NCBI GenBank assembly: GCA_044892525.1 | Contig: CM097885.1 | Coordinates: forward strand, 10,294,001 to 10,358,000 | Origin: Schmidtea polychroa | Lineage: Eukaryota | Reading direction: 5' to 3' | Length of the DNA: 64,000 nt | Part shown: positions 34,885-56,463 of the stretch, in pieces | Layout: every line of letters starts with the position of its first letter | How positions within the stretch are numbered: the stretch's first letter is position 1 | The notes under the pieces: model-generated | What the model was told of the DNA's origin: nothing | Database searches by the model: none | What the model saw: the letters and a program-made list of their open reading frames with translations, nothing else | Position numbers and translations under genes: made by a program

Positions 34885-35137
34885 TGTATCGACTAATTTT
34901 TTAGTTCGCAGAGGTGATTATGATTTTTCATACGCGATGTTTACAAGTTTACATATTTTCTGTGACCAAGCTAATAAGCAAGAGGTGTGATTCTCAGTAT
35001 ACCAGGAAAAGTATGCTATAAAGCTGAATCAGCAATATTTTATACTTACCTGGCGCGAAGAGAAATCTTCGCGTCTCCTGCATTGTACCGATGAGAGGCA
35101 GAAGCTCGAAACTAGTCTACCACTGGAATTTGCACTG
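34885..35137 (+). mobile_element. U1-headed hammerhead repeat, copy 1 (core mutated)
   Basis: 157-bp flank shared with copy 5; ATACTTACCTGGCG at 35042; hairpin CGCGAAGA-GAAA-TCTTCGCG; core CCGATGA...GAAACTAGTC. Confidence 0.85.
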
Positions 35138-35536
35138 TTGAGAAGATAGGTAAATAACGCGTAAATTATGTAATTATATCTCGGTTTACTGATTAACTTT
35201 GAATTAAATTTCAGTGAATTCGGTATATTATGTCTTTGCTCTATTTCCCTTTTTGCCTCATCGAAACTGATTAGTCGACTGAATTACGTTATTAAAACAA
35301 AATTGGTTAAATAATCATTCCAATAAAATAATAATAATAAATAACATTATTTTCTTCTATTATTATTATTATTATTATTATTATTATTATTATTATTATT
35401 ATTATTATTATTATTATTATTATTATTATTATTATTATTATTATTATTATTATCATTATTATTATTATTATTATTATTATTATTATTATTATTATTATTA
35501 TTATTATTATTATTATTATTTATTAAATATTTTTAG

Positions 35537-35621
35537 AACCAAACAGTCCTCAGTCGTCACACGGCCAAAGATATGATTCCATTGAGGATCAGTGGATTCA
35601 GTTCTAAACATATTTATGTTG
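35537..35621 (+). CDS. Possible 5' exon of the Sema-domain gene
   Basis: TTTTAG acceptor, GTGAGT donor, open frame ending KHIYV(G), like the LYVG motif of Sema domains; link to downstream exons not resolved. Confidence 0.4.
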
Positions 35622-38154
35622 GTGAGTTTATGGCATTTTTATTTTATCATAATCTTTTGATAATTTAAAATGAAATCTTTAATGAAATTATATAAAAAAA
35701 ATACAAAAGATATTTTGAAATTTATAATTTCTGAATCACCTTTATTGATATATTTTGCAACTAATTAAAGTTCCGTAAAAAGGTTTCCAGGCGGGACTGT
35801 TAATTACTAGAGTTTGAAGTGGGTTGTTTTTTATTTCTGAAGGTCCACTCAATCTCTTAAAGACTTATCCGATTTGTGTATGAAATGAAAACCATCTCAA
35901 TATATAATAAATAATAAACTTATAAAATGCAGCATAAATAATTAGCATTATTTTTACAAAATGAAGATTCAGTATTTGGTGATGTCATTAGAAATATCAA
36001 AATTAGATGCCCAACAAAAGCAAAGTTCTTGGCAAGATTTTTAAGTTTGATGTCAAAGAATACCATTTGAGACACAATGAAATATATCATTTACTCTTTT
36101 GTTCACCGTTGATTTGTTTTTATTTCCTTTTAAAATTTTATTTATTTTTTTATACTAGAAATCAATTAGTTTTCCTGCGTACTACAAATTGATATATAGT
36201 TGTCATGAAAATAAATGAAATTACTAGACAATGTTAACAGATAAATATCCTAATCACTGCATTTGTGCTGGAAATTCCAGTAATATTCCAGATTATGTAA
36301 ACATATATATATATAAACATAATTAATATTTGGAAGTGAATTCTCCATTTTCGTAATTAAAAATTTAAAAATATTGCTTATTATAAAAAATAATATAAAA
36401 TCACCTTTGAATTGCTTTGATCGAAAATAACATTTCGAATGATTGCTAATGTTACTCCAGGAAATTTATCAACCTTTTTTCCATAATAGTAGCAATTATA
36501 GCCGTCATTAGATCCTATAATTGTTGATAATAATGATAATTATGATTTGTTAGCAGATCTCATCAAATTTATGATCACTGACAGTTGAGTCTGAAGTTTC
36601 TGTAATTCATTAGATTTGAGCATTAAACCATTTACGGAAATGATTTACTGAACTAAGCATGAATATAATCACTGATCCGTGCGTGCCATATTGATAATAA
36701 TGAAAATAATAATGAAAATAATAATAATAATAATAATAATAATAATAATTATATATATATATATATATATATATATATATATATATATATATATATATAT
36801 ATATATATATATATATATATATAAAATAAAGCATTCATAACTATAGTAGTTTTAAAATCATATGAATTGTAATAATAAAACATTTTGTAGAACAAGGATT
36901 ATATACAGAATGATTGAAAATATGTCATATTATTAATATTCTCTTTCGCATTTCATTATAGCAGTATTTACATAATAAATCAAGAAATTATTCAGAGATT
37001 AAATTCTCCTAAGGAACTTTGATTGAAATATTTTTTAATAAGTAAAAGGATAAATTATTTACAATTTTAACTTTTCCAAAAAAATAATTAATATTTGTCC
37101 CTTAAAATAAAATCTGGAAATGAAGAAAAATATCAAAATAATTTATTTTTCTTGTTCAACTTTCACCAGTTGAAATCAATAAAAAATACAAAAACAAGTA
37201 TAGAATGATGGGAGATAAATAATATCGCATTTAGATAATATTCTACAGTAAAATTTTATAATAATAAAAATTAAGATTGTTATTACCACATTAAAATTTA
37301 TAAATTATAATAATAATAACTTCCTCTCATTTCAATATATAAAATGCCAAGTGATGAAGCTGAAAAATATGACGAAGCATATAATAATATTTAACTTAAT
37401 ATCCTGCCTAATGACAATATGTAAATGATCAATCCTCCCATATTAGGTGATTTCTGTCATTAGAGGTAAATTTTGGGTCAAATATATATATATATATATA
37501 TATATATATACGCTATTCTCTCTCAAAAATACCATTTATCTTACCGACAGAAATGATTGTAAAATTTCCCGAAAAATTTCTACTATGAAAATTCTAAATT
37601 CTAATTAAAAATACCAAAAAATATTTCAGAATTGATGATTCTAAATTTTTGTGCAAAACTGTGATTCTGTAAATTGTTTGATCTTAATTAAAAGTTCTAG
37701 ACAGAAATTTTTCTATCGGGAGTTTTCGGATAATTGATCATTTAGGTTTATAAATCAGTAGTAATTATGATAAAATTCAGGCCCCCATTCTACAATTGTC
37801 TTTGTAGAGATTTTCATTTTTGTAATTAAATTACTACATTTTATACGTATTGGTTATATGGAAGTATTTTTAATTAATTTGTTTTCATTTTGTAATTTCT
37901 TCGTCTTTATTTAAAATTACTCGATTAAAACAAAATCTCAATAATTATAGAAAATATATAATACTTACCTAATATTTTTTTTCTTTCAAACTCAAGAAAT
38001 ATAATAACAAGTTACAGAAAAAATTTAAGATATTAGATTTTAGAATAAAAATACAATTTAACTATTACATTATAATATCAATTTCTTTATTTTTATTTGA
38101 TAGGACAATAAATTATTATTTAAAACCAATTTTCGGTGAAATGTTTATAAAGTT

Positions 38155-38308
38155 TACCAGGGAAAGTATGCAATAAAGTTGAATCATCAATATTGTATAC
38201 TTACCTGGCGTGATGAGAAATCTTCGCGTCTACCGCATAGTACTGATGAGAGCCAAAAGCTCGAAACTTGTCAACTATTGGGATTTGTACTGGGTATCAA
38301 AAAGCTTT
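38155..38308 (+). mobile_element. U1-headed hammerhead repeat, copy 2
   Basis: ATACTTACCTGGCG at 38197; CTGATGA (38243) GAGC-CAAAA-GCTC GAAA CTTG TC; followed closely by (TTA)n. Confidence 0.88.
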
Positions 38309-38505
38309 TGTTGCTTATATTATCTTATTATTATTTTATTATTATTATTATTATTATTATTATTATTATTATTATTATTATTATTATTATTATTATTATT
38401 ATTATTATTATTATTATTATTATTATTACTATTATTATAATAAATTATCACTGATAAGTGTTTCAATTAAGAGACGATATTTAAACTTGATGTCATATTT
38501 AACAG

Positions 38506-38747
38506 GTTCTCATATTGTTAGTGCTCTACATAATAATTATGGACGAGCTTATATTGCACTCCATTATAACCGATCTGTCACCCACCATCCAGGATCTCCT
38601 CTAGTTACACCCCCGTCAAGTTTTTCCTATGGAAAAGTCAACTTCCTTCAGATATCAAAATTCAAGGATAAAATCTATTTCATTTTCACAGAAACCGCCT
38701 CGGAATTCGTCAACTACCACAATGCATTCTTTGACAAATATAAACCT
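38506..38747 (+). CDS. Exon of divergent semaphorin/plexin-like (Sema domain) gene
   Basis: CAG acceptor, GTAAGT donor; VNFLQISKFKDKIYFIFTETASEF matches the semaphorin F(V)...D.(I/V)YFFFRE.A.E motif. Confidence 0.8.
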
Positions 38748-54704: not shown

Positions 54705-55070
54705 CACCAATCCCTCGCTTTACAAAGTCTCTTTCTACGAAGTTTCGCTATAACGTAATTTAGAAAAAACTCATAGTCTCTGTTTACAAAATAAAAATTC
54801 GATTTAAGAATTTTTGATTTTTATTTAATTAGGGAAATTACACCTTACGAATATACAGAAACAGAATACAAAAAATTAATTTTGTTTTGAATTACGAATG
54901 TTTTCTTCAATAATATGAATTGATTAGATTTTTTAATTTATCAATTACCGCTTTTAATTAGAATTCTTGGTTTATATTACCGATAATTAAAATAAAAATT
55001 CGCTTAACGAAATTTCGATTTATGTTCAATTTTTCGGGAAAGACTTAATTCGTTAAGCGAGGGATTGGTG
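54705..55070. mobile_element. Tigger/pogo-type MITE
   Basis: TIRs CACCAATCCCTCGCTT, same terminal family as 16940-17693. Confidence 0.8.
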
Positions 55071-55596
55071 CATTTATTAATTTCTATATTTAACGAATGA
55101 TACTCAATGTATTTTTTGTTGGAATAAGTATCACAAAATGTATTTTCCCGTGTCTTTCTCTTGAACTCTTTCTTTGGAGCATACTGCGCAATGCTTTTCG
55201 GTTCTTTAACGTATGATGTGCAAGTCAAGGTCCGACAGGAAACTGGGGATTCTAAAATGTGAGGAAATAAACTAGAATATTATTTTTATTATGAATATTA
55301 TCACTGAGTTGAACATTATTATTCCTTAAATATAGATGAAATGGCTCCACAGTGATTTTATGTCAGATATTATGGGACCCCAGCACCAATTTATTCAAAT
55401 ATCATAATGTATTTATATATCTGTTCAAGAAATAAATGTATAATACCCATTTATTAATCAGATTCTGTTTTTATTATTTATTTTAATTTTCATTCCCCAA
55501 TTTCGGACTGTTATCCCTAAACATTTCTTGTGAAAACTTTGTAAACCAATATTTAAAATAATTTCATTTAATAATTTCAATTGAAAAATCATTAAG

Positions 55597-55852
55597 GAAT
55601 TTCATAGTGTATACTCACGCAGTGGGAGCTTCGGAGATTGATGAACATTCAGGACAATTTCTCATTATGTTTCGATCTTCCGACCCCATTAATAATAGCA
55701 ACATGTATTCCTCGGTGTTCTGTCGGTACAGTTTAATCAACATTGAAAAAGAATTGGAACGATCAAAATTTGCTGTTTTGAAAAGAGTCAACTACACCGA
55801 ATTTTGGATCCGTAATTATTATTCCAATTGGTTTCCCCTAAACTTATCAAAC
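55597..55852 (+). CDS. Exon of the Sema-domain gene (acceptor either 55596 or 55607)
   Basis: FLIMFRSS...SSVFCRYSLINIEKEL matches the Sema SAVC.Y.L..I motif; GTAAGG donor; the AG at 55595-55596 fits the phase of the 44392 donor. Confidence 0.75.
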
Positions 55853-55970
55853 GTAAGGCTCTTCTTAATTATTAGAAATATAATAATAATAATAATAATA
55901 ATAATAATAATAATAATAATAATAATAATAATAATAATAATAATAATAATAATAATAATAATAATAATAA

Positions 55971-56152
55971 TTTCTCTTCGCGCCAGGTAAGTATACAATA
56001 TTGTTGATTCAACTCTATTGCATACTTTCCCCGGTACACTGGAAATCACATCGCTTGAAATTAGCTTGGTCCTAGAAAAAATCTGTAAACTTGTAAACAT
56101 GGCGTATGAAAAATCATAATCACCTCTGAAGACAAAAAAATTAGTCGATACA
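55971..56152 (-). mobile_element. U1-headed repeat copy 5 (flank plus U1 head, ending at a microsatellite)
   Basis: Revcomp of ATACTTACCTGGCGCGAAGAGAAA at 55971-55994 plus ~158 bp flank matching copy 1. Confidence 0.88.
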
Positions 56153-56257
56153 CAGAAACTGTTTACAAGTGCATCCGATTACCTTTAGCGTTTTTAACTT
56201 ATAAAGTAACGGTGTAAAATTTTTTTGTCGGATGTCTCACTTGAATAAAATCAACAG

Positions 56258-56463
56258 TACAAGCATTGTGATACCCAGTGCAAATCCCAATAGTAGACTA
56301 GTTTCAGTACTATGCGGTAGACGCGAAGATTTCTTTTCGTGCCAGTTATGTATACAATATTGCTGATTCAACTCTATTGCATACTTTCCCTGGTACACTG
56401 GAAATCACATCGCTTGAAATTAGCTTGATCACAGAAAAAATCTGTAAACTAGTAAACATGGCG
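56258..56463 (-). mobile_element. U1-headed repeat copy 4 (hammerhead stem II deleted, U1 head mutated)
   Basis: Minus strand ...GCATAGTACTGAAACTAGTCTACTATTGGG: 18 nt lost between CTGA and AAC; head reads ATACATAACTGGC. Confidence 0.85.

Follow-up and report, generated by a model that had tools for sequence, protein, structure and literature searches.

A 378-bp retrozyme-like repeat family of Schmidtea polychroa with an embedded copy of the host U1 small nuclear RNA 5' end

The stretch of DNA analyzed here, referred to as the window, comprises 64,000 nucleotides of Schmidtea polychroa (GenBank assembly GCA_044892525.1, contig CM097885.1, hereafter C1, positions 10294001-10358000) and is part of a 781-Mb assembly of 1012 contigs. 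It contains four insertion remnants, all of one family with a repeating unit of 378 bp, which combines a type I hammerhead ribozyme with a 16-nt word identical to the 5' end of the host's own U1 small nuclear RNA (snRNA). We consider it probable that these remnants are four decayed insertions of a single non-autonomous retrozyme of the metazoan type, that is, one without long terminal repeats (non-LTR), with the life cycle and the origin of the U1 word that are proposed below.

Positions in the repeat are numbered from q1, the A of ATACTTACC, on a 378-bp reference unit taken from an intact genomic array (locus L034), and the window stretches were mapped onto this monomer by blastn. All five stretches that the original prediction had listed as copies are homologous to the monomer, with 88-100% identity, and lie at the places it gave. 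Their number was corrected to four remnants; the fourth and fifth copies, counted separately before, are one tandem piece of 1.3 units (56463-55970, minus strand). The remnants, their parts and the adjoining microsatellites are listed here by window position.

34885-35137, plus strand: remnant A, q220-378 followed by q1-96
35042-35057, plus strand: U1-like word of remnant A
35054-35073, plus strand: GNRA hairpin of remnant A
35082-35123, plus strand: decayed hammerhead of remnant A, with CCGATGA for CTGATGA and a mismatched helix II; its GTC ends at 35117
38151-38323, plus strand: remnant B, q333-378 followed by q1-127, 5'-truncated
38197-38212, plus strand: U1-like word of remnant B, with C15>T
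38237-38278, plus strand: hammerhead of remnant B, core intact; its GTC ends at 38272; Hammerhead_1 20.9 bits
38324-38437, no strand: (ATT)n microsatellite adjoining the 3' end of remnant B
51864-51961, minus strand: remnant C, q32-129 only
55970-56463, minus strand: remnant D, q268-378, q1-378 and q1-25 in one tandem piece
56463-56354, minus strand: first part of remnant D, q268-378
56353-55995, minus strand: full unit of remnant D, its head mutated to ATACATAACTGG and its ribozyme core taken out by an 18-nt deletion
55994-55970, minus strand: last part of remnant D, q1-25, with the U1 word intact, ending in (ATT)n
55880-55969, no strand: (ATT)n microsatellite (as read on the element strand), which cuts remnant D off at q25

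Remnant A lacks the usual 3' end. Remnant B has the regular 3' end and passes straight into (ATT)n, and its helix III (ACTTGT) and helix I are altered, with two changes in the U1 word. Remnant C carries no U1 word; its core is intact, as are helix II and the palindromic helix III, while helix I has one mismatch, the GTC ends at 51917 on the minus strand, and the Rfam model HH9 gives 20.3 bits (cut-off, that is, gathering score, 52 bits). The common layout that had been described for the copies is true of the family consensus but is intact in no window copy. In the first two copies (remnants A and B), the spacing between the U1-like +1 and GTC is indeed 76 nt. The “157-bp conserved flank,” which had been taken to be external to the element, was identified by blastn as q220-378 of the repeating unit itself.

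The repeat is abundant outside the window as well. A search of the genome with a 166-nt query from remnant B gave at least 1310 candidate places, and the 40 of these that were scored match with 91-100% identity and are spread over all four large contigs. Head-to-tail arrays are found on C1 and C2, in which the spacing of neighboring matches is 378 bp, or 383 bp in one array. The array of the reference locus (L034, 583-2804) holds 5.9 units with a period of 378 bp and 99% matches, and is flanked by (TAT)n and (ATT)n arrays. The arrays, together with the Hammerhead_1 matches described below, support the earlier view of a hammerhead-bearing, retrozyme-like repeat with a monomer of ~380 nt. Units adjoin each other directly, without terminal repeats, and the monomer has a G+C content of 37.3% against 25% for the window. 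A chance origin of the repeat is excluded by the number of candidate places and by the probability of finding the U1 word in a 378-bp monomer of the same composition (p ~6e-8; ~9e-6 for any U1 word).

The ribozyme has the type I consensus AUAGUA-CUGAUGA-GAGC-CAAAA-GCUC-GAAA-CUAG-UC/UACUAU, with the slash at the predicted cleavage site. Its core is complete, with all eleven invariant positions, the CUGAUGA and GAAA segments, the GUC triplet and three helices. Helix I has 6 bp (AUAGUA/UACUAU) and helix II has 4 bp, while helix III is minimal, consisting only of an A-U and a C-G pair around UA, which makes it the palindrome ACUAGU. The intact copy in L034 matches the Rfam model Hammerhead_1 with 27.4 bits (E 4.3e-5). 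Given the palindromic helix III, two ribozymes probably must pair with each other to cut. Amphibian retrozymes, which have a single-pair helix III with a palindromic loop, cleave poorly alone and well as dimers (PMC7229834), and by analogy with them cleavage of the present retrozyme probably proceeds as a dimer.

With the Rfam U1 model, 42 true U1 genes were identified in the genome (81.7-110.9 bits), and among the loci examined there are three types, U1a (ATACTTACCTGGCGCGG...), U1b (AAACTAACCTGGCGTG...) and U1c (ATACTTACCTGGCGTGAAG...). The U1-like 5' word of the original prediction is real, as q1-16 is identical to nt 1-16 of U1a; compared with U1c, 18 of the first 19 nt of the monomer are equal. 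Exactly at U1 +1 the identity sets in; upstream of it the two sequences are unrelated. Beyond nt 16 no significant likeness to U1 was found: when q17-135 was aligned to four U1 genes, 395, 356, 409 and 388 of 500 shuffles scored as high, and in local alignment to U1c this was the case for 184 of 300. The Rfam U1 model has no match on the element at E <= 10, nor at its gathering score.

A captured “U1 promoter/5' end,” as had been proposed, is not supported by these sequences. What lies upstream of the word is the rest of the monomer, the likeness stops at nt 16, and there is no proximal sequence element (PSE) box at the right spacing. Comparison of the presumed flank with the U1c upstream region gave a score that 68 of 300 shuffles reached, and five distinct U1 upstream regions compared by eye with that of the monomer showed no extended likeness. 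Among 16 upstream regions of U1, U2, U4, U5 and U6 genes of the same genome, 13 carry a box of the form ATG[CT]A[ATG][ATG] (mostly ATGCAAA or ATGTAAA) at -67 to -76, and the monomer has no such box at these positions. A PSE matrix was built from 11 of the 13 box-bearing upstream regions, excluding two near-duplicate U4 rows. Real boxes score 10.1-17.8 with it, the best word of the monomer scores 5.74 at -33, a value reached by 17.2% of 1000 shuffled monomers, and the word at -66 scores -1.06. The element holds a stretch of U1 RNA sequence but does not amount to a U1 gene, and a recognizable U1 promoter is absent.

The U1 word is part of a conserved module, q1-128. Among the sequencing runs listed for the element, of which none is on record as RNA, four were read, all as contigs; they include X7 (the deepest) and X6 (with a second organism label). 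In X7, variants reaching at least 10% of depth occur at 2 positions in q1-128 (q31 T>C, 75%; q38 C>T, 95%) against 17 in q129-378 (Fisher p = 0.026, counted by hand). The X6 contigs reach a depth of 335-9159 only over L034 1918-2021 (~q-3 to q101); outside it the depth is <=50, with 10 of 30 bins empty, and the loose ends of the contigs carry different sequence upstream of q3. Differences between X6 and the consensus of the first organism are found at q28, 29, 31, 33, (38), 60 and 61, that is, in the 3' strand of the GNRA hairpin and in loop 2, with none in the ribozyme core or helices and none in q3-27.

The survey of U1 genes gave some observations of its own. Two loci (L005, C2:110391849, and L010, C2:186382346) hold U1 genes of 97.6-108.8 bits that have the 5' arm AAACTAACCTGG in place of ATACTTACCTGG, an altered splice-site-pairing arm, both with an ATGCAAA box at -68. 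On C4 (74005298-74060415, with L096 as one unit) at least 40 U1 genes of 88.6 bits each are arranged in tandem, at spacings that mostly alternate between 1771 and 1727 bp and with no ATGCAAA box visible at -68; nt 1-19 of the U1 in this array are the closest match to the head of the retrozyme (18/19). U1 and U5 genes are interleaved in one cluster at C1:80.76-80.77 Mb (L003, L004, L006, L007, L082, L083 and L086). Long tandem arrays are also formed by U2 (~1015-bp period, C2:17.2 Mb and C45), U4 (2069-bp, C4:78.9-79.1 Mb) and U6 (793-bp, C2:142.9 Mb).

The monomer is predicted to fold into a highly paired RNA. Taken as a linear molecule from cleavage site to cleavage site it reaches -131.7 kcal/mol (z = -9.11, with none of 100 shuffles as good), and as a circle -127.6 kcal/mol. 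In the circular ensemble q1-6 pair with AAGUAU at q346-351 (p 0.84-1.0) and q8-12 with CCGGG at q339-343 (p 0.64-0.78), while q13-16 lie within the GNRA hairpin q13-32, CGCGAAGA-GAAA-UCUUCG(C/U)G. In the predicted fold, the pairing of q1-12 with q339-351 means that the unit would hold its own duplex of a U1 arm with a 5'-splice-site-like word, and that the arm would not be free. In the q103-113 stem, one window copy shows a double change that preserves pairing (CAAAAAGCTTTTG), as a single case. Contigs that go back by 378 are compatible with tandem DNA and with circles alike.

The ends of the insertions, compared at 30 loci, differ in character. The 3' ends are fixed, lying at q110-136 and mostly at q121-128 (...UGUUUAUUUUAUU), less often at q168-169 (overall ~q163-169), and some carry an optional extension of ~40 nt. 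The 5' ends vary from q69 to q349. The unit boundaries of the insertions are at q128/129, not at q1. Over q129-180 the depth of the X7 contigs is 0.2-0.7 million, and it increases to 4.4-4.7 million at q63-101, as expected when most copies are 5'-truncated. Inverted 5'-truncated neighbors are present at 5 of 22 distinct places. A microsatellite of A and T (at least 4 units) adjoins 16 of 20 places, or 15 of 19 independent ones, as L028 and L029 have common flanks and look like one duplicated insertion; the background, measured over the window and control loci, is 8-12% of positions equally close to such a microsatellite. On the downstream side of the 20 places this is (AAT)n at 10, (ATT)n at 3 and (AT)n at 1, with (AT)n only upstream at 2, and the same microsatellite stands on both sides at 7. 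These insertion features are reminiscent of Penelope-like elements. The window holds a 3' remnant of a Penelope-like open reading frame (ORF) at 48880-49355 (plus strand), with linker and GIY-YIG motif (...IVYYITYNVCNEIYIGSTLRTLHQIVKEH...), which is followed by (ATT)n at ~49978-50062 and has no hammerhead or retrozyme module downstream. Long (ATT)n/(AAT)n microsatellites, the favored neighbors of retrozyme insertions, are very common in the window (38324-38437, 42480-42760, 47330-47480, 49978-50062 and 55880-55969), whose G+C content is 25%.

From these features we propose the following life cycle. Multimeric transcripts would be cut after GUC (q76) by the type I hammerhead, probably acting as a pair of ribozymes, and the released monomers would fold into the highly paired RNA and could be circularized. 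The RNA would then be copied into A/T microsatellites, starting at the U-rich stretch q118-128, by a reverse transcriptase acting in trans, for which one of the many Penelope-like elements of the genome is the most likely source. Such a start would give the fixed 3' end, the variable 5' truncation, partial and multi-unit tandems, and occasional inverted neighbors. The word q1-16 would be a short piece from, or a mimic of, host U1 RNA. That it begins exactly at the U1 5' end fits an origin at the RNA level, such as template switching. It would now be one strand of the internal duplex with the 5'-splice-site-like word q339-351, beside the GNRA hairpin.

A further step would be to regard the word of U1 nt 1-16 as a selected working part rather than a frozen accident. 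On an abundant self-cleaving or circular RNA it may act as a U1 arm, opened to pair with 5' splice sites, or as a ready duplex engaging U1 small nuclear ribonucleoprotein (snRNP) proteins, nuclear retention or polyadenylation control; or the family may be the first retrozyme known to have captured a host snRNA by template switching. The word lies within the only part of the unit common to the second organism, which fits a conserved role. We hold this extension to be unlikely.

Several results weigh against the retrozyme reading. Both hammerhead scores (27.4 bits in the intact copy, 20.9 in remnant B) are under the Rfam gathering score of 34 bits, and an Rfam scan of the whole window at gathering scores gave no match; the low Hammerhead_1 scores are due to helix III, a palindrome without a loop that is aligned with a zero-length loop. 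No match over the cut-off came out of a genome-wide Hammerhead_1 search, in which 73 of 61077 candidates were scored. Its top score was 23.1 bits, and of its three matches at E <= 10 the best (L041) belongs to the same family and another (L042) looks spurious; this search is uninformative on other hammerhead families. Helix III is unable to close as a hairpin, and the dimeric helix III was not predicted either when two ribozyme segments were folded together with RNAcofold. The latter result is uninformative, with nearest-neighbor energies favoring an ACUG/UAGU pairing, so that the dimer step is taken from the amphibian analogy. Covariation support for q1-130 is nil; the 99 matches reduce to 40 distinct rows with mostly single private changes, which vary too little for any helix in this part to be tested. 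Within the U1 word, q13 is G in one subfamily, and the word is not measurably better conserved than the rest of the module, as the X6 differences are too few to demonstrate a stronger constraint. Lastly, an autonomous partner was not found. The genome has 2572 GIY-YIG (PF01541) candidates, and all 150 that were scored exceed the Pfam cut-off. Among 30 such loci taken with 1.5 kb on either side, a small sample of the 2572, none carries the module or the hammerhead core, and an Rfam hammerhead scan of 20 of these 30 gave none; one (L049) has an unrelated fragment, q120-254, nearby.

With no autonomous partner found among these 30 loci, the mobilizing enzyme may instead be a LINE-type (non-LTR; LINE, long interspersed nuclear element) reverse transcriptase with a (TAA)n-type 3' tail, acting on the same retrozyme. 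In favor of such an enzyme, (AAT)n stands directly 3' at 10 of 20 places and at 2 of them (L017 and L024) downstream only, as a templated tail would, and the 30 GIY-YIG loci yielded no Penelope-like partner. LINEs, too, are known to undergo 5' truncation and 5' inversion. The same microsatellite on both sides at 7 of 20 places speaks against a tail, as do (ATT)n in the opposite orientation at 3 places and at remnant B, and (AT)n at 3, which point to a target preference. The optional extension of ~40 nt and the inverted neighbors also match the description of Penelope-like elements (PMC8557442), and a LINE-type mobilizer is in our view unlikely. It is considerably harder to maintain that the family is plain satellite DNA, spread by unequal crossing-over and segmental duplication, with an inert relic of a hammerhead and no retrotransposition. 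The arrays of 99-100% identical units and the L028/L029 pair, which looks like a duplicated insertion, would be explained in this way. The scatter of copies over all four large contigs, the many single pieces smaller than a unit with a common 3' end and differing 5' ends, the drop of contig depth 5' of the common end, and the A/T microsatellites adjoining 16 of 20 places in either orientation would not, which makes plain satellite DNA very unlikely.

The remaining explanations concern the U1 word. The original prediction had modeled a captured U1 promoter and start, with capped transcripts from q1 from which the hammerhead would free a 76-nt mini-U1 that pairs with 5' splice sites. The identity does start at U1 +1 and run for 16 nt, TTGCAAG stands at -66 to -60 of an intact array unit, the place of ATGCAAA in real snRNA genes, and a newt hammerhead satellite (satellite 2) reportedly has an snRNA-type promoter. 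We nevertheless find this model improbable: the word at -66 scores -1.06 where real boxes score 10-18 and is not kept in the window copies (TTTCAAG and AAGCAAG), there is no likeness to U1 upstream regions, the Sm site and the U1 stem-loops are not recognized and the Rfam U1 model has no match at E <= 10, the U1 word is predicted to be paired (p 0.64-1.0), and the insertion unit is bounded at q128/129 rather than at q1. Should q1-128 be a drastically shortened U1 derivative (a U1-derived short interspersed nuclear element, or SINE, or a variant U1 gene), the hammerhead likeness would be an accident. Short echoes of U1 can be seen by eye (GCTCGA, the loop word CCAAA and ATTTG), and crocodilian SINEs headed by U1 or U2 exist (PMC4494074). 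Against this, alignments of q17-135 to U1 genes are no better than to shuffles (356-409 of 500 as high; 184 of 300 for U1c), the hammerhead core is full and comes with three helices and a Hammerhead_1 E of 4.3e-5, and the word lies within the unit instead of at its 5' end; a shortened U1 is the explanation that we find hardest to credit. It is also conceivable that the word was selected on the opposite strand, where it reads as the perfect 5' splice site CGCGCCAG/GTAAGTAT; antisense copies would then be donors or U1-binding sites of host or element transcripts. The complement of q1-12 is indeed a consensus donor, but the U1 identity starts exactly at U1 nt 1 and is 4-5 nt longer than a donor consensus would require (GGCGCG, q11-16), and selection of the word as a donor is highly improbable.

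Two further features of the window were noted. A near-perfect hairpin at 40980-41039 (minus strand) matches the Rfam family mir-753 with 55.4-56.8 bits (cut-off 62), and its opposite strand matches too. The same hairpin is found at L046 2667-2728 and L047 501-562, beside remnants of GIY-YIG ORFs; this recurrence suggests a repeated palindromic element, similar to a miniature inverted-repeat transposable element, rather than a single microRNA gene. At 41342-41767 (minus strand) an open frame of 141 aa reads like a decayed actin fragment and is probably a pseudogene or a lone exon.

Small circular RNAs of animals come in great abundance from retrozymes, a source that was recognized only recently, and the present family adds sequence-level support for their link to Penelope-like elements. 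A U1 arm paired to a mimic of a splice site bears on whether retrozyme RNAs touch the splicing machinery, and the word itself bears on how ribozyme retroelements acquire host RNA sequence. Should the word be no more than a fossil, the family would count as one more ordinary addition to a known class.

Among known systems, SINEU of crocodilians are SINEs headed by U1 or U2, whose snRNA piece probably came from template switching, snRNA genes having no internal promoter (Kojima, GBE 2015, PMC4494074). The present family is likewise a non-autonomous retroelement with a U1 piece that starts at the snRNA 5' end. SINEU, as described there, have a long snRNA head at the 5' end of the element and neither ribozyme nor tandem units, in contrast to only 16 nt of U1 inside the present unit (PMC4494074). 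The family does not fit an snRNA-headed SINE of the SINEU type, as the U1 part is 16 nt long and lies ~250 nt inside a unit bounded at q128/129. Newt satellite 2 is said, after work by Coats, Zhang and Epstein in 1994, to be a tandem hammerhead repeat with an snRNA-type (PSE-like) promoter; it would have the promoter element and no snRNA sequence, whereas the present family has snRNA sequence and no recognizable PSE. Among flatworms, Sm-alpha is described as a SINE-like element with a head of the RNA polymerase III type. Sm-alpha and Sj-alpha of schistosomes are described as hammerhead SINE-like elements (PMC2770079) and resemble the present family, by description only, in being high-copy, non-coding flatworm elements with a type I hammerhead; the part of that paper available to us does not mention a U1 word. 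In the literature searched, which did not include subscription journals, Repbase and Dfam, neither the present family nor any hammerhead repeat with a U1-like word turned up, nothing pairs ACUUACCUG with a hammerhead, and none of the papers listed describes a ribozyme repeat of Schmidtea.

Penelope-like elements insert preferentially at microsatellites and form partial tandems with inverted truncated neighbors; they have an optional tail of 30-40 bp and, close to the 3' end, a hammerhead (Craig et al., MBE 2021, PMC8557442). All of these features, the position of the hammerhead included, are seen in the present family. It differs from them in apparently lacking an ORF and in its microsatellites, which are mostly (AAT)n/(ATT)n where (TA)n and (CA)n are named for Penelope-like elements (PMC8557442). 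Vertebrate retrozymes have been argued to derive from Penelope-like pseudo-LTRs (Li et al. 2026, preprint, 10.64898/2026.07.22.740005).

The closest comparison is with the metazoan non-LTR retrozymes, for which platyhelminths were noted as bearers without detail (Cervera and de la Pena, NAR 2020, PMC7229834). As in these, a type I hammerhead is found in short tandem repeats (150-450 bp) of many copies, without LTRs, with a G+C content below 50% and with a highly self-paired predicted RNA, and the one-pair helix III with palindromic loop resembles that of the amphibian ribozymes (PMC7229834). Expression, circles and cleavage have been demonstrated for published retrozymes (PMC7229834), whereas the present family is known here from its sequence. 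What sets this unit apart from the retrozymes of that description is that the 5' end of the host U1 is present as an exact 16-nt copy, predicted to pair with a splice-site-like word; the paper mentions nothing similar, and the term snRNA appears in its reference list alone (PMC7229834). The family is a new and well-delimited member of the metazoan non-LTR retrozyme class, unusual in that it has the host's U1 5' arm built in as an exact copy.

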